A stretch of 32,000 nt of DNA, taken from contig CBDDBN010000025.1 of NCBI GenBank assembly GCA_965225735.1, positions 169,963 to 201,962 of the forward strand. The letters are read 5' to 3'. How positions within the stretch are numbered: position 1 is the first letter of the stretch; each line of letters starts with the position of its first letter. The position numbers were made by a program, and so were the translations under genes. This stretch comes from Denitrobaculum sp. (GTDB taxonomy: Bacteria; Pseudomonadota; Alphaproteobacteria; Kiloniellales; Kiloniellaceae). Positions 3,288 through 29,007 of this stretch are shown one piece after another. The notes below the pieces were generated by a model. That model was not told the origin of the DNA, searched no databases, and was given only the letters and a program-made list of their open reading frames with translations.

Positions 3288-4105
3288 GCCGCCACCGTCT
3301 CTGCTGACGGCCAGTCCCGAGTTTCCGGCCTGACGTCCCTGCGCCAGCGATAGAGGGCGTCATAAATTGCGAATGAGGCTGAAAGCTGCGCCAGATCGTC
3401 CGGATATATACGGGACAACCCGCGCACTGCGGCGAGGAGGCCAGCGGCTTCTGGTGCCTGCTCAAACTGCGCGCTCTCCGCGCCTCGAACGATTGTTGCC
3501 AACTGGGCGAGCGGATCGGACGTCAATCCAAGTTCGGCCAGCATGCTATCGAAGGCACATTGCTCATCACCGGCGCTCCCGAAGCCACCCTCGACAACGA
3601 ACGGAGCCGCGCCGAACTTTTCCGCAACACCCATCACTTCTTCCGGCGTGGCGAAGAGGATGACCGCGTCAGATTCGATAAAACGCCGGATCAGCCACGA
3701 AGAGGCGGTGCCGTCGACACCTGGACGCGCGCGTGTCACCCACAGCGTCCGTGCCTCGCCATCCCGTGGAGGCAATTTCGTGGGATCAACGGCCGGCATG
3801 CCGGCATCGGCCCAGCCTTCGAACCCCAGCGCCAGAGGCGCTGCTTCGATTCCTTCATGACGCAACAAAGCCGCGACACCCTGGCTGAGTTTCTTACCGC
3901 GATGACAGACGACAACGACCTTTCGACCGCGATAACACTCGCGCCAATCCTCGATATCCTTGTGACTGCGGCGGCGGGATGCGGGGATCAAACGCGGATC
4001 CAGCGCGAAGTCCTCATCGATGCGCACATCGATGATCGCGGGTGCGTCGGGCAAGCCGATCAGGCGGGAAAGTTGGTCGACGGAGATTTCAGATGGAGAC
4101 GTCAT
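3284..4105 (-). CDS. Rhodanese-domain / ChrB C-terminal (chromate-resistance) domain fusion protein
   Basis: 273-aa ORF. The N-terminal ~100 aa look rhodanese-like (IIDVRIDEDF...VVVVCHRGKKLSQGVAALLRHEG, active-site-loop CHRG). The C-terminal part (LWVTRARPGVDGTASSWLIRRFIESDAVILF...) matches my memory of the Chrome_Resist/ChrB C-terminal domain. Its stop overlaps the chrA start by 4 nt (ATGA at 3284-3287). Confidence 0.75.
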   Translation of the reverse strand: MTSPSEISVDQLSRLIGLPDAPAIIDVRIDEDFALDPRLIPASRRRSHKDIEDWRECYRGRKVVVVCHRGKKLSQGVAALLRHEGIEAAPLALGFEGWADAGMPAVDPTKLPPRDGEARTLWVTRARPGVDGTASSWLIRRFIESDAVILFATPEEVMGVAEKFGAAPFVVEGGFGSAGDEQCAFDSMLAELGLTSDPLAQLATIVRGAESAQFEQAPEAAGLLAAVRGLSRIYPDDLAQLSASFAIYDALYRWRRDVRPETRDWPSAETVAA

Positions 4106-4447
4106 AGCACGCCCTCCCTTTCGTTAAAGGCCAAGGACGCGATACTTGGGCTGACGCCTCACGGGGTGATCGCTAACCCCATGCTTATGGGGTAGCAACG
4201 GATCTGAAGGCTGTCAACCTGGAACGAATTTCGTCTCAGAACTTTCACATTTCGTTCAACAACGGCCCGGGAACTGCGCTGAAATGGCTGATTTCCGTAG
4301 TTTTGGATAGTCTGTGGGTTGAATAAGTTCGAGACGACGCGGAATGAAACGGTTATCGTCTCTGCGCATTTGAAACCCAGTTCCGCACGGTCCTGAAGGA
4401 ACAGGGCCGCAAGCAAACCTGTTGAGTATCAGCTTACCGGAAGTCTT

Positions 4448-15653: not shown

Positions 15654-16550
15654 TTGGTGAACCTCACATTCGTCAAAAGCTTTGTCACCCTTGTCGAAAC
15701 CGGCTCCTTTCAAAAGGCTGCCGAGCGCCTGAATCTCGCGCAACCAACTCTGTCGCAACACATTAGCAAGCTTGAAGAAAGTCTTGGCGTCCAACTGATC
15801 GAACGCCGGCGCGTAGGGAGTCGCGCCACACCCGAGGGTGAGACTGCGCTGGCGATCGCAAGAACGTTGCTGACGACCGCTGAGCATATGGTGCAAGCGG
15901 TGAAGCATGACTTCGTACGGATAGGCGCCAGCAGTAACATTGCGGAATACTATGTTGCCCCTGCCCTTTCGCAGCTTGAGTTAGCGGATGGGCAGACGCT
16001 TCAATGGCAGATCGAGCAAGCCGACAACCCCAGTCTGATTCTGCGGCTAAGAGACGGCTTGGTCGACATTGCGATTACCGAATGGGAACCGGATGAACAG
16101 GGCTTTGAGTCCCGTTTCTGGCGATCCGAAGAGATGGTCATTATCCTGCCGCCAGAACACCGTCACGCCTCTCAAAGCGAAATATCCCTGGCCGATTTGT
16201 CGGCGATACCGATGATTGGCGGCGGTCAGGGCACGGGCACGGGCACCCTTCTGCGCGAAGTTTTGGGGCCCAAGGCTAACCAGCTCAAAACCAGCGTTGC
16301 CATGGGCTCGACGCAGGCGGTCAAGAGCGCCGTAGCATCGGGCCTGGGCTGCTCGATTGTTCTGCGCGGTTGTGTGGAGACTGACCTGAAAGCCAAGGCT
16401 TTGGCAGCTTTGACGCTGAAGGGCTATGAGCTCCGAAAGTCCTTCTACATTTCCTTTTCAAAGGACCGATACAACCATCCCGCCATTCAAAGCTTTATGA
16501 ATGGACTGATGGTACCTTTCCCTAAAACTCCACGCCTTTCTGTGCCTTGA
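15654..16550 (+). CDS. LysR-family transcriptional regulator (PtxE-like by position)
   Basis: HTH FQKAAERLNLAQPTLSQHISKLEESLGVQLIER, followed by a LysR substrate-binding domain. The track start is TTG at 15654; GTG at 15657 is equally possible. It begins 5-8 nt after the ptxD stop. Confidence 0.85.
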   Translation: MVNLTFVKSFVTLVETGSFQKAAERLNLAQPTLSQHISKLEESLGVQLIERRRVGSRATPEGETALAIARTLLTTAEHMVQAVKHDFVRIGASSNIAEYYVAPALSQLELADGQTLQWQIEQADNPSLILRLRDGLVDIAITEWEPDEQGFESRFWRSEEMVIILPPEHRHASQSEISLADLSAIPMIGGGQGTGTGTLLREVLGPKANQLKTSVAMGSTQAVKSAVASGLGCSIVLRGCVETDLKAKALAALTLKGYELRKSFYISFSKDRYNHPAIQSFMNGLMVPFPKTPRLSVP

Positions 16551-17201
16551 CGCCCTGCTCCCGGAAGGGGTGTTTAATCTGCGTCATCTCCGTAACCAGG
16601 TCGGCGACCTCGATCAATTCGGGCTTGGCGTTGCGGCCGGTGACGATGACATGCAGGTCTTCGGGCCGGTTGTCGAGGAACTCGACCACCTCTTCCAGCG
16701 GCAGGTAATCGTAGCGTAGGACGATATTAAGTTCGTCCAGCAAAACCATGTCGTACTTGGGTTTTTCGCCATTTGACTTATCGACCCGACAAGCTTCGAT
16801 CATTTCCTTGGAGACTTCCCAGGCGCGCTTGGCGGCGGCGATGTCGCGGGCACGGTCCTGGGTATCCCAGGTGAAGCCCTCGCCCATAGTACGGATCTCG
16901 GCCAGGTCGGGGAAACGCTCCAGGACCACCCGCTCGCCGGTCTCCCACTTGCCCTTCACGTATTGCACCACGCCAACGCGCATGTCGTTTCCGATGGCCC
17001 GGGCGACCAGGCCGAAGGCGGCGGTCGACTTGCCCTTGCCTTTACCGGTGTGGACGATCAGGAGGCCCTTTTCCTCGGTCTTGGTCGCGAGCATCCGTTC
17101 GCGGGCGGCCTTGCGCTTGCGAGCTTTTTCGTTGGCCCGTTCGTTGATCTCGTCCTCGGTCAGTTCGCTCCTGGGTTTGTCGCTGGTCTGATCATTGGCA
17201 C

Positions 17202-17205
<4 letters not shown>
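16522..17205 (-). CDS. cobO: Cob(I)yrinic acid a,c-diamide adenosyltransferase
   Basis: 227 aa. LLIVHTGKGKGKSTAAFGLVARAIGNDMRVGVVQYVKGKWETGE and LLDELN match the CobO/BtuR P-loop family. The start overlaps the cobN stop (ATGA at 17202-17205). Confidence 0.9.
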
Positions 17206-21029
<3,824 letters not shown>

Positions 21030-21112
21030 GGATGCTCTCGCCCTTCACGCCGATTGGTGCGTCCGGGCTCATGGATCCGGACACCCTTTTTACCTTATCC
21101 CGCAATCGCCCC

Positions 21113-22201
21113 TTATTCGGCAATTGCTGCGGCAGCCGCCTGCGGGACGCCTTGCGCCGCGGAACCGCCGGACGCCAGCTCCGCCCGGATCGCGTCGCTG
21201 TCCATATCCGCCTCGCCGATCACCACCAGCCGGGTGGACTGAATCTCCGCCGGCTGCCAGTCGCGGTCGTAGTAATGCTGCAGCCGCCCGCCAACGCCCT
21301 GAAGCACCAGGCGCATGTCCTTGCCGGCAACCTTGGCGAAGCCCTTGACCCGCAGGATGCCGTGCCGGGCGATCACCGGCAGCAGGCGCGCGACCAGGCT
21401 CTGCGGCGTCTCGACCTCGCCCAGGTCCACGGCGAAGGAAGTGAAGTCGTCATGGTCATGCTCGTGGCCATCGTCGTGGTGGCTGGGCCGGGAGTCCAGA
21501 TCGTCCTCGGCGGCGGCTTCCAGGCCCAAAAGAACCTGTGCGTCGACCTTGCCGTAAGAACTGCGCACCACCTTGACCTCGGGCCGGATCTCTTTCTTCA
21601 CGTCGCCCAGAACCTGCTCCAGCGCCGTCTCGTCCAGCAGGTCGGTCTTGTTGATCACCACCATGTCGGCGCAGGAGATCTGCTCCTCGAAAAGCTCCTC
21701 CAGCGGGCTTTCGTGATCGAGCGACTCGTCGGCCTTGCGCTGGGCATCCACCGCCGCCGGGTCGCTGGCGAAGAGGCCATCGGCCACCGCTGGGCCATCG
21801 ATCACGGTGATCACGCCGTCGACCGTCACCTTGGTGCGGATTTCCGGCCAGTTGAAGGCCTTGACCAGGGGCTTGGGCAGCGCGAGGCCGGAGGTCTCGA
21901 TGACAATATGGTCCGGCGGCTCGGGCCGGTTCAGTAGGGTCTCGATGGTCGGAATGAAGTCGTCGGCCACGGTGCAGCAGATGCAGCCGTTGGGCAACTC
22001 CAGCACCGCGTCTTCCTCGCAGCCCTCGATACCGCAGCCCTTGACGATCTCGCCGTCGACGCCCAGGTCGCCGAACTCGTTGATCACCAGGGCGATGCGC
22101 TTGCCGCCGGCGGTCTCCAGCAGGTGGCGGATGGTGCTGGTCTTACCGGCACCCAGGAAGCCGGTGATAACGGTTGCCGGGATTTTATTCGATTGGGACA
22201 T
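21113..22201 (-). CDS. cobW: Cobalamin biosynthesis metallochaperone GTPase CobW (COG0523)
   Basis: P-loop GFLGAGKTS, CxCC motif (GCICCTV) and the His/Asp-rich stretch SRPSHHDDGHEHDHDDF typical of CobW. 362 aa. Confidence 0.9.
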   Translation of the reverse strand: MSQSNKIPATVITGFLGAGKTSTIRHLLETAGGKRIALVINEFGDLGVDGEIVKGCGIEGCEEDAVLELPNGCICCTVADDFIPTIETLLNRPEPPDHIVIETSGLALPKPLVKAFNWPEIRTKVTVDGVITVIDGPAVADGLFASDPAAVDAQRKADESLDHESPLEELFEEQISCADMVVINKTDLLDETALEQVLGDVKKEIRPEVKVVRSSYGKVDAQVLLGLEAAAEDDLDSRPSHHDDGHEHDHDDFTSFAVDLGEVETPQSLVARLLPVIARHGILRVKGFAKVAGKDMRLVLQGVGGRLQHYYDRDWQPAEIQSTRLVVIGEADMDSDAIRAELASGGSAAQGVPQAAAAAIAE

Positions 22202-22237
22202 CAGATCTGCTCACCACTGCCTGTTTAGCTTTTATTA

Positions 22238-22792
22238 TCATGAGACCGGCGCTTTTACGGTCATGGGCAGTCCCGCGACCATGAAAACCACCGAATCCGC
22301 CACCGCCGCCACCGCCTGATGCAGGCGGCCGGCATGGTCTCGAAAGTCTCGCGCCAATCGGTTCATGGGCACAATCCCAAGACCGACTTCATTTGAAACA
22401 AAGACGACCGGCCCCGCGAGCTCCGGTAGGGCCTTCACCAGGGTCTCGATCTCCACCTCAATCTCCCGCTCCTCCGCCATGAGGTTGGAGAGCCAGAGGG
22501 TCAGGCAATCCACCAGGATCGGCCGGTCCGCCTGCGCTTCACGGGTCAGGACCCCGGCGAGGTCCAGAGGTTCTTCAATCGTCGACCAGCGCTCGCCCCG
22601 CCGTTCCTTGTGGGCCGCAATGCGCGCGGCCATCTCGGAGTCCCGTGACGCCTGCCCCACCGCGGTGGCGATATAGAGGCAGTCGCCAGTCCCAGATTCG
22701 ACCAACTGCTCCGCATGGCGGCTCTTGCCCGAGCGGGCGCCGCCCAGGATCAGAGAGACGGCGGGAAGCGTCGTGAGGTCGTTCGGAGACAC
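22238..22792 (-). CDS. cobU: Bifunctional adenosylcobinamide kinase / adenosylcobinamide-phosphate guanylyltransferase
   Basis: 184 aa with the P-loop LILGGARSGKSRHAE, plus the family's size and position. The start is GTG at 22792. An ATG at 22802 is out of frame. Confidence 0.88.
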   Translation of the reverse strand: MSPNDLTTLPAVSLILGGARSGKSRHAEQLVESGTGDCLYIATAVGQASRDSEMAARIAAHKERRGERWSTIEEPLDLAGVLTREAQADRPILVDCLTLWLSNLMAEEREIEVEIETLVKALPELAGPVVFVSNEVGLGIVPMNRLARDFRDHAGRLHQAVAAVADSVVFMVAGLPMTVKAPVS

Positions 22793-23161
22793 CGGAGTCC
22801 ATAAGCCTTCAGAATTGCAAAGTGGCGGCGAGTTTCCTTAGCGGGCACGGCCGGCGCAAGGACAAACTGAATGGGGCAGAAAATCGCAGAAAATCAACAA
22901 GATCGGGCTGTGGTTCGCGAAACCCACGCTAACGCATATCACGTTGAATTGCGGTCTCCGGCTGATCCGAACGCGTTGTGCTCCGCAAACGCTGCCTCGG
23001 ATCAGCCTGCAACCACACTTATTCAATAGAACGCGATACACGCTAAATTGTGATCGCCCTGTGTGTGGCCGTCTGGGGTACGCGAACCCAGATGATTAAC
23101 CACGAGGCTGCTAACTCGACCGCCTCATCTCCATGAGACGGTGCAACCGGGAAATTGAACC

Positions 23162-23908
23162 ATGCTGAAACGAACCGCTTTGACCACACTGCAGATCTTC
23201 GTGATTCTCGCCGTGATCACCTTCATGCTGACCTCCGCCGTACGCGCGGCGGGCTTCCACGCACCGGCGTCACAGGCCAAGGCCTTGTCCGACAACGCCC
23301 AAGCTCAGAGCGGCGAAGTCATCAAGGCCGGATACTTCAAAAAGCGCCACGGCCATCGGGGCTACGGCCACCGGAAGTTCGGTCATAAAAAGTTTGGCTT
23401 CCGGAAGTTTGGACACAAACGGAAGTTTGGTCATCGTAAGTTCGGGCACCGCAGCTACGGCCACAGAAGCTTCGGACACAAGAAATTCGGCTTCCGCAAG
23501 TTCGGCCATAAGCGGAAATTCGGCCACCGGAAATTCGGTCATGGCAAGTTCGGCTTCAAGCGCCACGGCCACAAGGGCTACAAACACTCAGGCTACGTGC
23601 ACAAAGGCTACGGCCATAAGGGTTACGCGTACAAAAGCCACCGACACGACAAACACAGTCACAAGAGCCATGGTTACCATCAGCTCAGCGACGGCAAGTT
23701 CGATTACGGCGCCAGCAGCTATAAATCCACCGGCCCCAAACACCACGGCCATAACTTCAAAAACGGCAACAGCCAGAAGAAATTCGCCGTCAAGGTCCTG
23801 CCCCGCCGCAAGCCCGCGGTGAAAAAATTCAACTACGGCAGCAGCAAGTTCAAACAGAAATCCCCGAAACACCACGGGCATGATTTTAGGAATGAGCCGA
23901 GGTATTGA
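23162..23908 (+). CDS. Secreted histidine-rich, hyper-basic (K/R)(K/R)(F/Y)G(H/F) repeat protein, function unknown
   Basis: 248-aa ORF with a signal peptide (MLKRTALTTLQIFVILAVITFMLTSAVRA|AG). Residues ~60-175 are a near-continuous array such as RKFGHKKFGFRKFGHKRKFGHRKFGH. I count about 30 His. There are two C-terminal copies of a K(F)(D/N)YG.SS(Y/F)K...PKHHGH(N/D)F module. The frame choice is supported by the signal peptide and by synonymous-only divergence between the internal repeats. Confidence 0.7.
   Translation: MLKRTALTTLQIFVILAVITFMLTSAVRAAGFHAPASQAKALSDNAQAQSGEVIKAGYFKKRHGHRGYGHRKFGHKKFGFRKFGHKRKFGHRKFGHRSYGHRSFGHKKFGFRKFGHKRKFGHRKFGHGKFGFKRHGHKGYKHSGYVHKGYGHKGYAYKSHRHDKHSHKSHGYHQLSDGKFDYGASSYKSTGPKHHGHNFKNGNSQKKFAVKVLPRRKPAVKKFNYGSSKFKQKSPKHHGHDFRNEPRY
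23366..23551 (+). repeat. Tandem 93-bp (31-codon) duplication inside the His-rich gene
   Basis: Unit 1 spans 23366-23458 (GHRKFGHKKFGFRKFGHKRKFGHRKFGHRSY). Unit 2 spans 23459-23551 (GHRSFGHKKFGFRKFGHKRKFGHRKFGHGKF). 27 of 31 residues are identical, and 19 of those 27 codons differ synonymously. Confidence 0.9.
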
Positions 23909-24452
23909 TGGGTGGCATATAGAAAAGGTTGTAAGACCCAATATAGCGATCTTACTTTTCCGCTAGTCAAACTCAAAAAATATCTAAACGCTCAACTCCA
24001 ATGGACAAACTTACCGCCCCATTCTTAGCTCGAAATTGAAGATAATCTTAGCGATCTAAGAATAACCAAGCGCTCCCGCGTAGAAGAACTCTACCTGAGA
24101 AATCCAGGGCAGCTCACTATGTCCCCGGCAATTGCGGAACCGGGAAAGTTCGTTTCCCAGCGCTCTCGATAACCTAATCGCCGACAAAGGTCGATCACAA
24201 AGCCACAGATGCTGTTTTCACACCTTTCGACGAGCACAGGGTCAAGTTAAAGGCTGTGGGGTTCCTCACATTCTACAACATGCATCAGTCACATAATCAA
24301 ACTTAGTTTTTACCTACTTCATACCATTACCCCGCGTTCGCCAGTGTCAAGAATCTCCGCAGCCTCGGAGTTGCCCTAGCCCGAAGTCTACCGCAACTCG
24401 CTAGCGAATGGTTTGGATCCGACGAACGGTTGGGAAATTGAGAGGCTCGGCG

Positions 24453-27263
24453 ATGAAAAAGTTCGCTTTGGTTGCACTAATTCTTTTGACCGCTTCTGCT
24501 TGTGGTAATCCGTACGGACTAAAATTCGACAGTGTTAACCTAGACGCCGATCAACAGAAAGGCGTAATCCAATTCACTGACCCCAAACTCTACAAGCGCG
24601 AAGCTCTTATTAACGAAAGGAAAAGAGAGCGAGCCTATCTCAAAAAACTACTGGACAAGACTGAAGAAGATACTTTCGCAATTGAACCCGAGATCGTTCG
24701 AGAACTCGAAACCATTCAAGCATTTTCAGCGAGCCTTGGCCTGAAAATTGATCCCACTGCGGGCGCCAACTTTCAAAGAGACACAGAAATAGCAGAACTC
24801 AAACATCAATTTGAGCTGACTCGTCTCGACATGCAGCTATCTCAATTGAAACGCGACGCCGAACTTCTCAACGACCAACTATCGAATCAACAAACGCTCT
24901 CCCAATCAGTTGGAACGCCTTCCGGCAGCACAACCGTAAACAGCAGTGTCACACCCCCAGATCCAACAACACTCATTACTAAGATCGAAGATCTTAGGGC
25001 CAAACTTGAAAACCGGCTTAATGCACAAGTCTCTCAACCGCGGAAAGTTTCCACTGCTGTCGCTGGACCTATAGACACGCTTAACGATATTTCCGCTTAT
25101 CGCAACGCTTTAAAGAGCGCAATGAACACAGTGAGCTTAGATGAATTGCACGACAAAGGAGGCAATTCCCTTTTTCGCGTGCAACTTAAAGCGACTGTGC
25201 TTCCGGGCGACAAAGATTATCTAGATACGCTCGGTGTCTTGCGGATGGAAATCGGAAAACCAACTTGGACGGTTGACGATAAGCGGGAGCTATATCTCAA
25301 ATGGCTCCTGCATGTGAACCGCAATCTCAATCTGGTTCCCGATCCCCAAAACGCAACGGATGAAAAACGGATAAGGACGAGCCCAGGTCTAGTCACTCTT
25401 GGACAGATTGGTGATCTCTACGAAATCACCTTACTGGAGATACCAAAGCAAGGAACGACTGAAATAAGCAATGATATTGGTGCTTTTCGGTGTAAAGGAG
25501 TTCAGCAAACGGAGCGCTTTCCAGATGCTTGTTGGTACGTCAGAGTAGCAACACCTCCACTATCGTCCAGTGGTGTTACTTTAGCTCAAATGCTTGACCA
25601 AAGCGTTCAGTTCTCTTCCCGAGTAACTGGCACACTACTTGGTGCACGCAAAAGCCTTATTGAGGGAAAAGGCTTCGACGGCATCCCACTTCCTGAAAGT
25701 ACATCAATCCTTAATATGGACTGCAAAACTTTCGTATCAGCCGAAAATGAAACGTTCATCCTGCAACGCACTGATGACCGGAACCGGAAAGGCACAACAC
25801 TAAAAGCTGCGTTAGTTCAGGCACAATCAGTTCGCACCTGGTGGCCCTATGCTTCTGCCGTTATCGGTTTCCTGACCGAGTTTCAATTCGGCAATGGCCC
25901 ATCGGAACAAGCCATTCCAAAACAACTCACCCAAGTATTGACGCGGTTCCGTTCGGTTCACGAAGCGGCAGGCGCATTTCTAATCGAGCTTGCAAAAAGA
26001 AACCCATCTTGCAAAGCACAGATCCTAACGCCGGCCATCACAGTCACTCCTGATGTTTTCAAAGCAATCATTGAAAGCGCAAATCCAAGAGTCTCAGTCT
26101 ACGATGTAGCTCCGACAGAGCGAGTCCAGAGGATATCGACAGCAGCTAGAGCAGCCGACGCTATCGCTCTTGCAGCTGCGGCAACCGGACAACTTCCGAG
26201 TCACGGTATTGGGTTGAGCGGCAATTTCGCTTATTCACGGACGGCAACTGGCAAGGCAGATGCATTGGAACGCGCACCACTTGTCGTTGGTTTCGCTGAG
26301 CCTGGAGCCGACACGAATCAACATAAACCTTCATTCGGCTGGCTTCTCGGGCCTCAGATTGGCTTGAATCCAGAGGACCAATCCCTCTTTCTAAGCCAGC
26401 GCGTAAAGCCTTATGAACTATATGCCGATCTGTCTTTGCCGGGTTGGTGGCCTCACTTCGAACTCAGGACTTTTACTGCTTGGGCACCCGAATGGCGTTC
26501 GACAACAGATGGTTCAACAATAACATCCGAGGCCCTTAAGCGCGTTGTAACAGTTCCGATGGAGCACAATGCCGCCGATCTTGATGGCTTAACATCCTTG
26601 ATCCTAGAAACAACCACCGGCGAACGCGTGGCATACCCCACCATACTCTCAATCGAACCACCTGAAGTATCAGCGTGCGCCGACAACATCGAACTCCAAG
26701 TACGCGGCGAAAACATCTGGCGGGCTTCCCTAGTCCATATCGGTGGTCTTGCTATCAAAGACGCAAGCATCGAAGTGCTTCCAGATATGCGAGGTGTATT
26801 GGTCTCCGTGCCCACTAAGGATATACCTAAAATCGACAATGGACAGAATCTCGTTACCGTATGGACCAAGGATGGCCCTGCTTCCTTCCCCATCTCTTTC
26901 GACAACAAACGCAAGGCCGATGGAACATGTGAAGCCCGAACGGCTCCAGCACCGCAGCCCAAAGGTCCGGTTATTACGAGTGTTGCGCCTTCTGCTATCT
27001 CTGTCTGCGATACTGACGCAGTTTTTACAGTAGTCGGAAAAAATCTTCAAAACATTGGCAGCGCAGTCTTAGGCACAATGACCGCAAGCAGCGTGAGCGA
27101 GGTCGGGCCTCGAAACGGCACGGTATTAGAGATCAAAGTGAACGGCATCGATGGAAAGAAAAAGATCGACGCCCTTCAATTCATAAACTTGGCTATCCGG
27201 ACGCCTAAAGGTGCCACAACTGCCGATATCAACGTCGTCCAGTCACCGACAAGATGCAAATAG
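24453..27263 (+). CDS. Large orphan lipoprotein (936 aa) with an N-terminal coiled-coil-like region and two C-terminal IPT/TIG-like Ig-fold domains
   Basis: The start is trimmed to ATG at 24453, with GAGAGG 8 nt upstream. The lipoprotein signal is MKKFALVALILLTASA|CGNPYG. A charged helical region covers roughly aa 55-210, followed by an S/T/P linker. At the C-terminus are YPTILSIEPPEVSACADNIELQVRGENI... and GPVITSVAPSAISVCDTDAVFTVVGKNL.... I recognised no catalytic motif. Confidence 0.8.
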   Translation: MKKFALVALILLTASACGNPYGLKFDSVNLDADQQKGVIQFTDPKLYKREALINERKRERAYLKKLLDKTEEDTFAIEPEIVRELETIQAFSASLGLKIDPTAGANFQRDTEIAELKHQFELTRLDMQLSQLKRDAELLNDQLSNQQTLSQSVGTPSGSTTVNSSVTPPDPTTLITKIEDLRAKLENRLNAQVSQPRKVSTAVAGPIDTLNDISAYRNALKSAMNTVSLDELHDKGGNSLFRVQLKATVLPGDKDYLDTLGVLRMEIGKPTWTVDDKRELYLKWLLHVNRNLNLVPDPQNATDEKRIRTSPGLVTLGQIGDLYEITLLEIPKQGTTEISNDIGAFRCKGVQQTERFPDACWYVRVATPPLSSSGVTLAQMLDQSVQFSSRVTGTLLGARKSLIEGKGFDGIPLPESTSILNMDCKTFVSAENETFILQRTDDRNRKGTTLKAALVQAQSVRTWWPYASAVIGFLTEFQFGNGPSEQAIPKQLTQVLTRFRSVHEAAGAFLIELAKRNPSCKAQILTPAITVTPDVFKAIIESANPRVSVYDVAPTERVQRISTAARAADAIALAAAATGQLPSHGIGLSGNFAYSRTATGKADALERAPLVVGFAEPGADTNQHKPSFGWLLGPQIGLNPEDQSLFLSQRVKPYELYADLSLPGWWPHFELRTFTAWAPEWRSTTDGSTITSEALKRVVTVPMEHNAADLDGLTSLILETTTGERVAYPTILSIEPPEVSACADNIELQVRGENIWRASLVHIGGLAIKDASIEVLPDMRGVLVSVPTKDIPKIDNGQNLVTVWTKDGPASFPISFDNKRKADGTCEARTAPAPQPKGPVITSVAPSAISVCDTDAVFTVVGKNLQNIGSAVLGTMTASSVSEVGPRNGTVLEIKVNGIDGKKKIDALQFINLAIRTPKGATTADINVVQSPTRCK

Positions 27264-27297
27264 CTCTGCTCTAGAACAGCGTGAGAGGAGAACCACC

Positions 27298-27492
27298 ATG
27301 GAAAGAGGCCGCGTTAAGTCATTTGGAGGCGGTCAAGGCACTATTGAACCTGATGAAACTGGGAAGCCGGATGTGTTTTTTCTGAGTACTGTTGTCGAGG
27401 GCTCCAAAACACCCGCTGTCGGCGCCGCTGTCGAATATAAACTTTATCAGAGTGGCGGCGAACCTGAAGCAAAGAGGGTGGTGATTATTTGA
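27298..27492 (+). CDS. 64-aa cold-shock-domain-like (OB-fold) protein with degenerate RNP motifs
   Basis: ATG at 27298 is preceded by GAGAGGAGAA. MERGRVKSFGGGQGTIEPDETGKPDVFFLSTVVEGSKTPAVGAAVEYKLYQSGGEPEAKRVVII aligns by eye to CspA (G.VK.F...G.G.I.PD..G.DVF...S......G..V.....G..P.A..V). It lies 34 nt downstream of the lipoprotein gene. Confidence 0.6.
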   Translation: MERGRVKSFGGGQGTIEPDETGKPDVFFLSTVVEGSKTPAVGAAVEYKLYQSGGEPEAKRVVII

Positions 27493-27653
27493 AGTCACTA
27501 AATGTATGACCAAAAACTATTGGGGAGCGTAGCGACCAACATTCCTTTCGTACATAGTAATTAGGCACGGATTTCTTGTTGCATTAAGAATCCAGTTTTA
27601 AAATCATGTTCGATAACCCGCGAAATTCCAGTGACACAGCACCCAAGTTTCGG

Positions 27654-27680
27654 CGCGAATTACAGAAACATAATGCTTAA
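27654..27680 (+). repeat. Left copy of a ~25-nt imperfect direct repeat flanking the IS (cgcgaattacagaaacataatgcttaa)
   Basis: It aligns with 29235-29259 at 23 matched positions with three 1-2 nt gaps. Confidence 0.6.
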
Positions 27681-27978
27681 TTATTCGGTCGGGCGAACTA
27701 CCTCTTTCTTTTAGAAATGACGATGAACTTGGCTGGAGAGTCAAGACATCGGGCGTTAAACCAGCAACCGATCACGCCCAAACAAGGACCCAATCCCGCT
27801 TGCTCGGTGACGATCTCATCGGACCGATCCAATTGAGCTATTGTGTCGTGTGTCTGGTCCGTGTGTCGGGGATATTGAAGCATCGGGGACATGGCCGTAA
27901 TCGCGGCTGGTCACGCTCCGAGCCTATAGTAGGGGTTCTGTGTTGAGCAGCCCCAGTAGGCCATGAAGGAGCGCGACC

Positions 27979-29007
27979 ATGGAGTATTATATCGGTTTGG
28001 ATGTGTCCCTGAAAGAAACCCATCTTTGTTTGGTCGATCAGGCAGGTAAGGTTCTTGGCCGGCGCCGGGAAGTGAGCCGTCCGGATCTTCTGGCTTCGGC
28101 GATCAGGTCTCTTGCGCCCGAGGTTCGGTTGGTTGTTCTGGAGACGGGTGGACAATCGAGTTGGCTGCAGCGCGAACTGAGCGCTTTGGGTGTGCCGGCG
28201 GTGATCGTCGATGCCCGACGCGCCAAAGCGGCCTTGAGTTGCCGGATGAACAAGAGCGATGCCAATGACGCGGAAGGCTTGGCGCAGTTGGCCCGCACCG
28301 GCTGGTACCGGGAAGTGGCCGCCAAGCGGCCGGAAGCGCGCCTGGCGCGGGCGTCTTTGCTGGCCCGTCAGCAACTGGCGAAGCAGCGGCGCGATCTGGA
28401 GAACTGCATCCGGGCGCTGTTGCGGGGTTTTGGTCTTCCTGTTGGGATGGTCAGCCGGCGCGGTTTCGAAGCGCGGGTGTGGGAGTTGCTGGGTAAGGAA
28501 ACTTTACTGGAAGAGGCCGTGGCGCCTCTGCTGCAGGCCCGCCGTGGCTTACTGGTTCAGATCGAGGTGCTGGAACGTGACATCAAGGCTCTGGCAGCGG
28601 CCTCTGCGGTCTGCACGCGCCTGATGAGCGTTCCCGGTGTGGGTCCTATGACGGCGCTGGCCTTTGTGAGCGCCATCGACGATCCGGACCGCTTTACACG
28701 CTCGAGCGCGGTGGGTGCCTATCTCGGCCTGACCCCTCGACGTCATCAATCGGGTGAAGTCGACTGGTCCGGCCGGATCTCCAAGCGGGGCGATGCGCTC
28801 GCGCGGCACATGCTCTATGAAGCGGCCAATGCCTTAATGGTCAGGACCAAGAAGTGGTCGGCCCCCAAGGCCTGGGCCTTGCGCAAGGCGGCCCGCATCG
28901 GCCCCAAGAAAGCTCGGGTGGCCCTGGCCCGCAAGCTTGCTGTGGTCCTGCACCGTATCTGGGTCGATGGCAGCGAATTCCGTTGGACGAAGGAGGAAAC
29001 CGCCTAA
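27979..29007 (+). CDS. IS110-family transposase (DEDD RuvC-like N-terminal domain plus Tnp_20 C-terminal domain)
   Basis: 342 aa. MEYYIGLDVSLKETHLCLVD, VVLETGG and NKSDANDAEGLAQL give the DEDD pattern. The C-terminal LMSVPGVGPMTALAFVSAIDDPDRF...YLGLTPRRHQSGEVDWSGRISKRGDALARHMLYEAA is the classic IS110 signature. AAGGAG is upstream. Confidence 0.95.
   Translation: MEYYIGLDVSLKETHLCLVDQAGKVLGRRREVSRPDLLASAIRSLAPEVRLVVLETGGQSSWLQRELSALGVPAVIVDARRAKAALSCRMNKSDANDAEGLAQLARTGWYREVAAKRPEARLARASLLARQQLAKQRRDLENCIRALLRGFGLPVGMVSRRGFEARVWELLGKETLLEEAVAPLLQARRGLLVQIEVLERDIKALAAASAVCTRLMSVPGVGPMTALAFVSAIDDPDRFTRSSAVGAYLGLTPRRHQSGEVDWSGRISKRGDALARHMLYEAANALMVRTKKWSAPKAWALRKAARIGPKKARVALARKLAVVLHRIWVDGSEFRWTKEETA

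Follow-up and report, generated by a model that had tools for sequence, protein, structure and literature searches.

Small cold-shock proteins of the CspA/CspE family, about 65 amino acids (aa) in length, carry aromatic and basic residues in two motifs, RNP1 (KGFGFI) and RNP2 (VFVHF). Small stand-alone proteins of the cold-shock domain (CSD) type also occur in accessory contexts, as in the retron Se72 effector (NCBIfam NF038236), which is paired with a reverse transcriptase, and in the PADLOC family CSD_V. The Bacteroides surface glycan-binding lipoprotein SGBP-B (PDB 6e57, 6e9b, 7k44) combines an N-terminal lipid anchor with a string of immunoglobulin (Ig)-like domains. Pairs of a secreted enzyme and an intracellular inhibitor include barnase-barstar and staphopain-staphostatin, where staphostatin is a beta-barrel. 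The EACC1-caspase two-gene membrane system consists of a short protein with a single transmembrane helix, followed by a caspase fusion (Kaur et al., 2020, PMC7159879). Here, a cassette of two genes from Denitrobaculum sp. (assembly GCA_965225735.1, contig CBDDBN010000025.1, forward-strand positions 169,963 to 201,962) was analysed and compared with these systems. The whole stretch of 32,000 nucleotides (nt) is called the window, and positions are counted from its first letter. Gene 1 encodes a large lipoprotein and gene 2 a small protein resembling a cold-shock protein (Csp), hereafter called the partner.

The two genes very probably form a self-contained, horizontally mobile operon for an exported, lipid-anchored protein and a small degenerate cold-shock-fold protein. 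Judged by sequence comparison, both open reading frames (ORFs) are real genes and their adjacency is not a matter of chance, because homologues of up to 71% identity exist and the gene pair is conserved. Loci with homologues (numbered with the prefix L) were gathered by exact protein look-up, a scan of one genome per species, scans of metagenome contigs and plasmids. A small gene on the same strand was found directly 3' of the lipoprotein gene in 25 of 31 non-redundant closer relatives with a readable 3' flank; this runs against the refuting case named in the original prediction, made from the letters of the window, in which homologues never occur as neighbours and the adjacency is accidental. 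The pair was found in Sphingomonadales, Comamonadaceae, Lysobacter, Pseudomonas and on one Vibrio megaplasmid. Measured in 23 pairs, the gap between the two genes lay between -4 and +45 nt, apart from one of 119 nt; start and stop codons overlapped (gap of -4 or -1) in six of these pairs, and the gap was 1–3 nt in seven more. In the Vibrio pair (L057), the partner gene begins on the base right after the stop codon of the lipoprotein gene. Pairwise identities of the lipoproteins correlated with those of their partners (Spearman 0.68), a value that none of 5000 permutations reached; this correlation is best read as co-inheritance and is by itself no sign of physical interaction.

Clustering of all flanking ORFs gave no other gene conserved across the loci. 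L022, the closest relative with 71% identity of the proteins, resembles the window at the nucleotide level over 24507-27166 and 27368-27448 only, and since only the two coding regions were conserved, with no other conserved neighbour, the unit can be taken as a two-gene cassette. The partner was absent from L006 and L054 (Nitrotoga-type clade), from L029, L035 and L052, from a distant branch (L050, L051) and from the members in Verrucomicrobia and Planctomycetes (L018-L021); in L002, a fragment of an insertion sequence (IS) directly follows the lipoprotein gene.

Within the window, the arrangement described in the original prediction was found again: two co-oriented genes, each behind a GAGAGG Shine-Dalgarno sequence, with 34 nt between the stop of gene 1 and the start of gene 2, in a segment of low guanine-cytosine (GC) content beside an IS (Table 1). 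The GC content was 0.491 in gene 1 and 0.497 in gene 2, against 0.654 in the cob genes at 17202-22792 and 0.632 in the adjoining IS110 transposase gene at 27979-29007. As a group, CobO, CobN, CobW and CobU of the cobalamin genes span 16522-22792 (about 65% GC). The reading frame of gene 1 is open back to an upstream ATG at 24408, and its start was set at 24453 on three grounds: the GAGAGG precedes this position by 7 nt, the lipobox signal opens here, and P0001, the identical protein in the database, has 936 aa. Simple scans of the window for promoter and terminator signals performed no better than on shuffled sequence, and a scan with Rfam gave no known RNA family beside the gene pair.

Gene 1 opens with a signal peptide in which a basic N-terminus and a hydrophobic core lead to a lipobox of the PS51257 type, reading LLTASA before the lipidated Cys. 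The residue after this Cys (+2) is Gly, in agreement with the E. coli +2 rule (no Asp), and the lipoprotein is probably located in the outer membrane; the sorting rule derives from E. coli and may not apply in this organism. The mature protein contains eight Cys, and conserved Cys bracket each Ig-like domain (742/826, 852/935). Four disulfides are likely, and the conserved pairs would fit an oxidising compartment.

The full protein was modelled with AlphaFold2 (AF2) on 30 homologues (predicted local distance difference test, pLDDT, 75.6; predicted template modelling score, pTM, 0.65), and residues 205-725 were modelled alone in a second run (pLDDT 77.2, pTM 0.74). Helices were predicted at residues 49-71, 82-92, 102-145, 171-190 and 206-232. 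Low pLDDT values were obtained in the stalk at 78-112, 145-169 and 192-205, and the S/T/P hinge at 145-169 was disordered in the model, breaking the long helices that reach residue 232. The core is mixed alpha/beta and helical, and beta-sandwich domains extend from about residue 611 to 930. In the head, an alpha/beta subdomain with the invariant L-D-x-x-H-D (229-234), R242, Y281 and W284 in the alignments is accompanied by a helical bundle that varies and by a conserved segment, RVSVYDV...STAARAADA...GKADALER. The lipobox, helical region, S/T/P linker and core of about 500 aa that had been read from the letters thus match both the sequence and the AF2 model. A textbook catalytic motif was looked for in gene 1 and none was found, as had been reported for its central region; the invariant L-D-x-x-H-D is present there, though.

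Foldseek searches with the model of residues 205-725 yielded no structural counterpart, the best values being E=0.25 (probability 0.03) in the PDB and E=0.044 among the viral structures of BFVD. With the full model, matches were confined to the tandem Ig part (E=3e-7 to 1e-4), so that the comparison of folds foreseen in the original prediction matched the Ig-like region only and left the head without a relative in either collection. Residues 730-930 had pLDDT values mostly of 80-90 and the fold of an Ig-like (E-set) beta-sandwich. Two IPT/TIG-like segments had been claimed at the C-terminus. Their nature as Ig-like sandwiches was upheld by Foldseek and AF2, but the number was probably too low and Pfam TIG was unmatched: the models suggest three consecutive beta-sandwich domains, not two, because the Foldseek alignments to three-domain Ig proteins run over about 350 columns; the additional Ig-like unit would be the Trp-rich sandwich at 611-725. 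A Pfam scan of gene 1 gave nothing, including the IPT/TIG model (PF01833), which is recorded in the homologues P0014-P0016 and was faint in L002. The NCBIfam model CoaZ_rpt_PGGG matched residues 729-815 below its cutoff (E=1.3e-5). No significant match for gene 1 was found in PADLOC (PADLOC-DB v2.0.0) or PHROGs, and a search of all PDB chains with its sequence profile gave coiled-coil noise only.

The loop at residues 583-607 (GxGxSGNxAYSRxxxGKADALER) belongs to the most conserved segments of the family, and it was unstructured in both AF2 models. Along this loop, small or hydrophobic residues tend to take turns with polar ones, and it could have a function for which it becomes folded only upon binding, oligomerisation or membrane contact.

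The lipoprotein family proved to be large, and in this respect the original prediction of an orphan module did not hold. A word-index search with the window protein returned 43 clusters, including P0001, at 33-71% identity and none of them named. When a profile of the core alone was used, 1134 cluster representatives were found at E<=1e-3, 829 at E<=1e-10 and 376 at E<=1e-30; with clusters formed at 50% identity, the family thus comprises at least 1134 clusters, and the pair occurs in several taxa. In all of the 150 best matches to the core profile, the core is placed at about residue 200-240 in proteins of 800-1400 aa. In the N-termini of the family, the lipobox precedes a variant of PYAL...SDPxLYxREALINER. 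A lipobox according to the PROSITE-type rule was present in 136 of 165 members, most of the others being truncated at the N-terminus or near-misses, and the +2 residue of these 136 was A, G, S or T in 100 and Asp in two.

Conservation across the 165 members was at least 85% for R49, E50, R56, D230, H233, D234, R242, Y281, W284, Y550, Q559 and S562 in the N-terminus and head, and for E606, R607, G629, W630, P634, D659, W665, W666 and W677 in the loop and sandwich. Values of at least 90% were reached family-wide by R49, E50, L52 and R56 near the N-terminus and by G585, G600, E606 and R607 in the loop; in the Trp-rich sandwich, G629, W630 and P634 were conserved in 100% and W665, W666 and W677 in at least 95%. 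None of 14 distant members tested had a significant Pfam domain. Exact look-up of P0001 and P0130 on contigs gave no match, and a literature search found nothing on this lipoprotein family. It is large and uniform in architecture and absent from Pfam, NCBIfam, PADLOC and PHROGs, so even a modest finding at the bench would provide annotation for many genes in Proteobacteria, Verrucomicrobia and Planctomycetes.

Gene 2 had been described as a degenerate CSD-like protein of 64 aa, and profile searches bear this out. The Pfam CSD model (PF00313) matched it with 24.7 bits (E=2.2e-5), below the gathering score of 27 bits; the partner in the orthologous locus L003 passes this threshold with 31.5 bits, and four of 22 partners were matched at E<=0.01. 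A profile of nine short-form orthologues matched E. coli CspE with 39.1 bits and CspA with 33.3 bits, and a profile of 22 partners matched solved cold-shock proteins, among them 3cam (E=1e-4) and numerous chains of CspB, CspC and CspE. The 64-aa protein found nothing but itself in a word-index search. At the sites of RNP1 and RNP2, the window protein has GGGQGTI and VFFLS, and a five-strand pattern like that of Csp is predicted for it from the alignment to Csp proteins. The label of a degenerate cold-shock fold appears to hold for the whole partner family and not just for the window copy. No signal peptide was found in the gene 2 protein, which would accordingly be cytoplasmic; the two products would then occupy different compartments. 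The combination noted in the original prediction as unusual, an exported and disulfide-bonded lipoprotein with a partner lacking a signal peptide, is thereby retained.

In every pair, one shared domain of about 60 aa opens the partner, and four architectures were distinguished (Table 1). Short and long N-domains are probably homologous, with a probability of 90% and E=1.7e-6 in a profile-to-profile comparison. The matches of the 22-partner profile to HU proteins came from L013 alone. In the public annotation, L013 contains a 94-aa HU protein (P0190), while the frame from the ATG that overlaps the lipoprotein stop codon encodes 152 aa with a CSD-like front; the annotated start of P0190 is probably too short. 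A cold-shock fold without the RNA-binding signature that has gained further modules (HU, helical tail, duplication) would be a clear case of exaptation.

Table 1. Coordinates of the cassette in the window, parts of the gene 1 protein, partner architectures and neighbouring regions at other loci.
Feature	Position or loci	Strand	Basis and remarks
Gene 1	24453..27263	+	936-codon ORF; identical database protein P0001 also 936 aa
Gene 2	27298..27492	+	64-aa ORF
Shine-Dalgarno of gene 1, GAGAGG	24440..24445	+	Sequence reading; 7 nt ahead of ATG
Shine-Dalgarno of gene 2, GAGAGG	27283..27288	+	Sequence reading
AT-richer segment with cassette, cob genes on one side and IS110 element on the other	22900..27980 (approximate)		GC profile
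Signal peptide and lipobox, MKKFALVALILLTASA then C, lipidated Cys17	24453..24503	+	Sequence; Cys17 conserved in 95% of 165 members
N-terminal hairpin and helix, NPYGL...VIQFTDPKLYKREALINERKRE, residues 18-71	24504..24665	+	Conservation; pLDDT 82-87 over residues 31-70
Helical/coiled-coil stalk with S/T/P-rich hinge at about 145-169, residues 72-205	24666..25067	+	AF2 secondary structure, sequence
Head/core, residues 206-610	25068..26282	+	Alignments; core-only AF2 model
Conserved loop, residues 583-607, SHGIGLSGNFAYSRTATGKADALER	26199..26273	+	pLDDT <50 in both AF2 models
Trp-rich beta-sandwich, residues 611-725; FGWLLGP, PGWWP, TAWAPxW	26283..26627	+	AF2 strands 611-702
Two Ig-like (E-set, IPT-like) domains, residues 726-936, then stop	26628..27263	+	AF2 strands, Foldseek
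Partner: domain alone, 61-79 aa	Window; Pseudomonas sp. C9 (L001); Vibrio sp. MAO6 megaplasmid (L057); L003, L022-L025, L034, L036
Partner: two tandem domain copies, 142 aa	L056 3267-3695
Partner: domain and helical tail of about 80 aa, 128-163 aa	Hydrogenophaga, Ottowia, Acidovorax, Sphingopyxis, Sphingobium, Allosphingosinicella, Erythrobacter, Lysobacter enzymogenes
Partner: domain fused to HU (PF00216), 152 aa	Sphingomonas sp. dw_22, L013 10859-11317, NZ_JAAVVE010000003.1		HU, E=5.5e-27
Patatin/peptidase/cyclase neighbour regions	L029 9094-12208; L047 4205-5662, 10237-13551; L052 104-2581; L050 3093-5885; L051 9854-11754

The genomic neighbourhoods of the family members were mixed. In L029, L047 and L052, the lipoprotein gene has membrane patatin-like phospholipases of one related family beside it or nearby. 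L050 shows a CBASS-like arrangement, with a patatin and a SMODS cyclase directly upstream, and in L051 a trypsin-like peptidase and a papain-like Peptidase_C1, both without signal peptide, lie directly downstream. A papain-like Peptidase_C1 and a DUF4760 protein were nearby in L029, a CHAT protein in L025, and a subtilase together with a cyclase-AAA_16-TPR protein in L023. The neighbours in L002 were Eco29kI, a methyltransferase and AbiJ, those in L036 Mrr and SRAP, and integrase, TrwC and TrwB genes were near family members at other loci. Ordinary metabolic neighbours without defence genes nearby were present in the window and in L001, L048, L054 and L056. A replacement of the CSD partner by patatins or peptidases was considered and is weakened by L047, which has two patatins and a CSD-like partner.

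No relatives were found in IMG/VR viral contigs or INPHARED phage genomes and, with no significant PHROG match either, a phage origin was rejected. A known defence system was rejected with no PADLOC match for gene 1 and only CSD_V for gene 2 (E=0.0013, 16.6 bits). A type II toxin-antitoxin pair was likewise dismissed: gene 1 encodes an exported lipoprotein of 936 aa, and neither protein matches a toxin-antitoxin family in Pfam or NCBIfam. Defence islands and prophages had both been raised in the original prediction as possible seats of homologues; conflict-type genes near some loci are a circumstantial hint of the former, and the searches of IMG/VR, INPHARED and PHROGs speak against the latter. 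Taken together, what the original prediction observed was confirmed, and its interpretation was partly supported.

Our best guess for the function of the cassette is that of an envelope lipoprotein combined with a cytoplasmic regulator at the nucleic-acid level. The lipoprotein would be the working part and act in the envelope, where it might, with low confidence, bind and perhaps process a glycan or other polymer of the envelope or of a foreign surface. The conserved head, the Trp-rich sandwich and the Ig-like domains would make contact with the polymer; the invariant Trp in the beta-sandwich and the top Foldseek matches to glycan-binding lipoproteins give weak hints of a glycan ligand. The partner would remain in the cytoplasm and act on cassette expression at the DNA or RNA level, be it as an autoregulator, as a counter-silencer of AT-rich acquired DNA or as an operon-specific mRNA factor. 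That it acts at the nucleic-acid level on the expression of its own cassette is put forward tentatively and with considerable doubt. In its favour, the constant domain has repeatedly been joined to modules of DNA- or RNA-binding type (HU, helical tail, second CSD), and the long-form tail is net-basic in L007, by hand count in this one example. A regulator is favoured over an essential inhibitor because the partner is missing where the lipoprotein is intact (L006, L054, L029, L052).

Several results weigh against this proposal. No family or fold match supports a ligand or an activity of the lipoprotein, and the Foldseek matches to glycan-binding lipoproteins are generic Ig matches. The positions by which CspA makes contact with nucleic acid (W11, F18, F20, F31, H33, F34) are mostly non-aromatic and varied in 24 partners, and most partner N-domains are acidic, with an isoelectric point of 4-5.5. 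An operator or leader common to the upstream regions of the window and 13 other loci was not found. The long-form tail was rejected as a degenerate HU, as the tail profile built without L013 matches no HU protein. The conflict-type genes near family members are a lead in another direction.

This lead would suit a module for defence or exclusion, with the lipoprotein as a surface barrier or sensor against phages, conjugation or competitors and the CSD-fold protein as cytoplasmic effector or receiver. The exclusion or sensing module floated in the original prediction draws circumstantial support from these genes and stays speculative. Its accessory character (49% against 65% GC, the adjoining IS110, patchy taxa and the copy on a Vibrio megaplasmid) agrees with such a role, as do the patatin, SMODS, peptidase, CHAT, Eco29kI, AbiJ, Mrr, TrwC and TrwB genes beside family members and the weak matches of gene 2 to PADLOC CSD_V and the retron Se72 effector. 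Cold-shock domains are also named among the effector domains of conflict systems (PMC7159879). We nevertheless consider a conflict module, though a serious rival, rather unlikely: PADLOC yields nothing for the lipoprotein and just a 16.6-bit CSD match for the partner, relatives in IMG/VR, INPHARED and PHROGs are lacking, many loci (the window, L001, L048, L054, L056) have no defence genes nearby, and the recurrence of neighbours is a raw one and no demonstrated enrichment. The cassette also encodes no inner-membrane component that would link the exported lipoprotein to the cytoplasmic protein. The bolder version, a founding example of an undescribed class of conflict module in which a new-fold outer-membrane lipoprotein guards or senses the surface with a repurposed cold-shock-fold protein, and patatins and peptidases serve as effectors in several lineages, seems quite unlikely to us.

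Alternatively, gene 1 could encode an exported enzyme and gene 2 its dedicated cytoplasmic inhibitor or pre-export chaperone, a small acidic beta-barrel that would engage the precursor of the lipoprotein ahead of its export by Sec. Tight translational coupling (six overlaps and seven gaps of 1-3 nt among 23 pairs), co-inheritance of the two proteins, the acidity of the partner with its lost RNA-binding residues, and the many invariant polar residues of an enzyme-like lipoprotein head could all be read in this way. This reading has difficulty with the fusion to HU and with the basic helical tails gained by some partners; lineages exist that keep an intact lipoprotein without the partner, no domain of toxic or catalytic type was identified, and the two proteins were never fused in 165 family members, which leaves an inhibitor or chaperone distinctly improbable. 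An accidental adjacency of two unrelated genes is scarcely credible. The scans of the window for promoters and terminators give no signal either way and the pairing is known from sequence alone, but it holds in the 25 closer relatives, which belong to several orders and reach down to an identity of about 30%, with overlapping start and stop codons in several of them and correlated divergence of both proteins; this conservation effectively refutes a chance arrangement.

Beside the cassette, the IS110-family transposase gene (+ strand) was identified by the NCBIfam model 'IS110 family RNA-guided transposase' (E=2.3e-74). About 490 nt of non-coding sequence (27493-27978) between gene 2 and this gene could carry the IS110 end and a guide (bridge) RNA; Rfam was negative here. 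The sole Rfam match in the window was a chrB-a RNA motif at 4103-4185 on the - strand (72.9 bits, gathering score 43.9). An ORF of 248 aa at 23162-23908 (+), amid the cobalamin/CobW metallochaperone genes on one side and the cassette on the other, encodes a hydrophobic N-terminal segment followed by KFGH/RKFGH-type repeats. Its product consists of 16% Lys, 13% Gly and 12% His, with a 93-nt tandem repeat at 23361-23538, and may bind metal; it had no match in Pfam, NCBIfam, PADLOC or PHROGs, and the exact sequence was absent from the protein collection. At three other loci suspected to be of Nitrotoga/Gallionellaceae type, a gene of about 372 aa follows the cassette on the opposite strand (L003 10222-11340, L006 4117-5238 and L054 4378-5493, all -). 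The copy in L054 has the Pfam domain DNA_alkylation, BLASTP (E<=1e-3) among the three showed no similarity, and position and size alone are common to them.

Set against the described systems, the pair matched no described family or system in searches of Pfam, NCBIfam, PADLOC, PHROGs, PDB and BFVD, as the original prediction had supposed. Gene 2 is like the CspA/CspE family in size, predicted five-strand pattern and profile-level homology. The aromatic and basic residues of RNP1 and RNP2 are not conserved in the partner family, which is mostly acidic, and the partner gene, unlike CspA/CspE, is in every case linked to a particular lipoprotein gene and has variants with a tail, a second copy or HU. 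SGBP-B gave the best Foldseek matches of the full gene 1 model (E=3e-7) and shares with it the lipid anchor and the string of Ig-like domains; the match concerns the generic Ig region only, with a TM-score of about 0.1-0.2 and 12-15% identity, and the head (about 400 aa) and stalk of gene 1 have no counterpart in SGBP-B. SusC/SusD-type genes were not present in the window, and a TonB-dependent receptor with GH31 upstream was seen in Lysobacter L048 only. An SGBP/SusE-like lipoprotein of polysaccharide utilisation was rejected for the window, which lacks SusC/SusD, TonB-dependent transporter and glycoside hydrolase neighbours.

The retron Se72 effector and CSD_V are, like gene 2, small stand-alone CSD-type proteins in an accessory context. 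Gene 2 scored 13.7 bits (E=0.044) against NF038236, with a cutoff of 82, and 16.6 bits (E=0.0013) against CSD_V. Membership was rejected with scores far under the cutoffs, no reverse transcriptase among the ORFs examined and nothing from Rfam near the pair; the protein paired with the CSD is here a lipoprotein. In barnase-barstar and staphopain-staphostatin, an exported protein is likewise followed by a small acidic cytoplasmic protein in the same operon; the fusion to HU and the lineages of the cassette that have lost the partner do not fit this analogy. The EACC1-caspase system and the cassette are both two-gene, membrane-associated and patchy, and CHAT or caspase genes are near some family members; the system was rejected as a match on its different proteins, the cassette consisting of a lipoprotein of >900 aa and a 64-aa CSD-fold protein. 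No described system containing a pair of lipoprotein and cold-shock-fold protein was found, and the cassette is a well-defined unknown and not a demonstrated new mechanism. If the pairing is functional, it would link an exported surface protein to a cytoplasmic fold of nucleic-acid-binding type without an obvious transducer, a logic that would set it apart from every described system.

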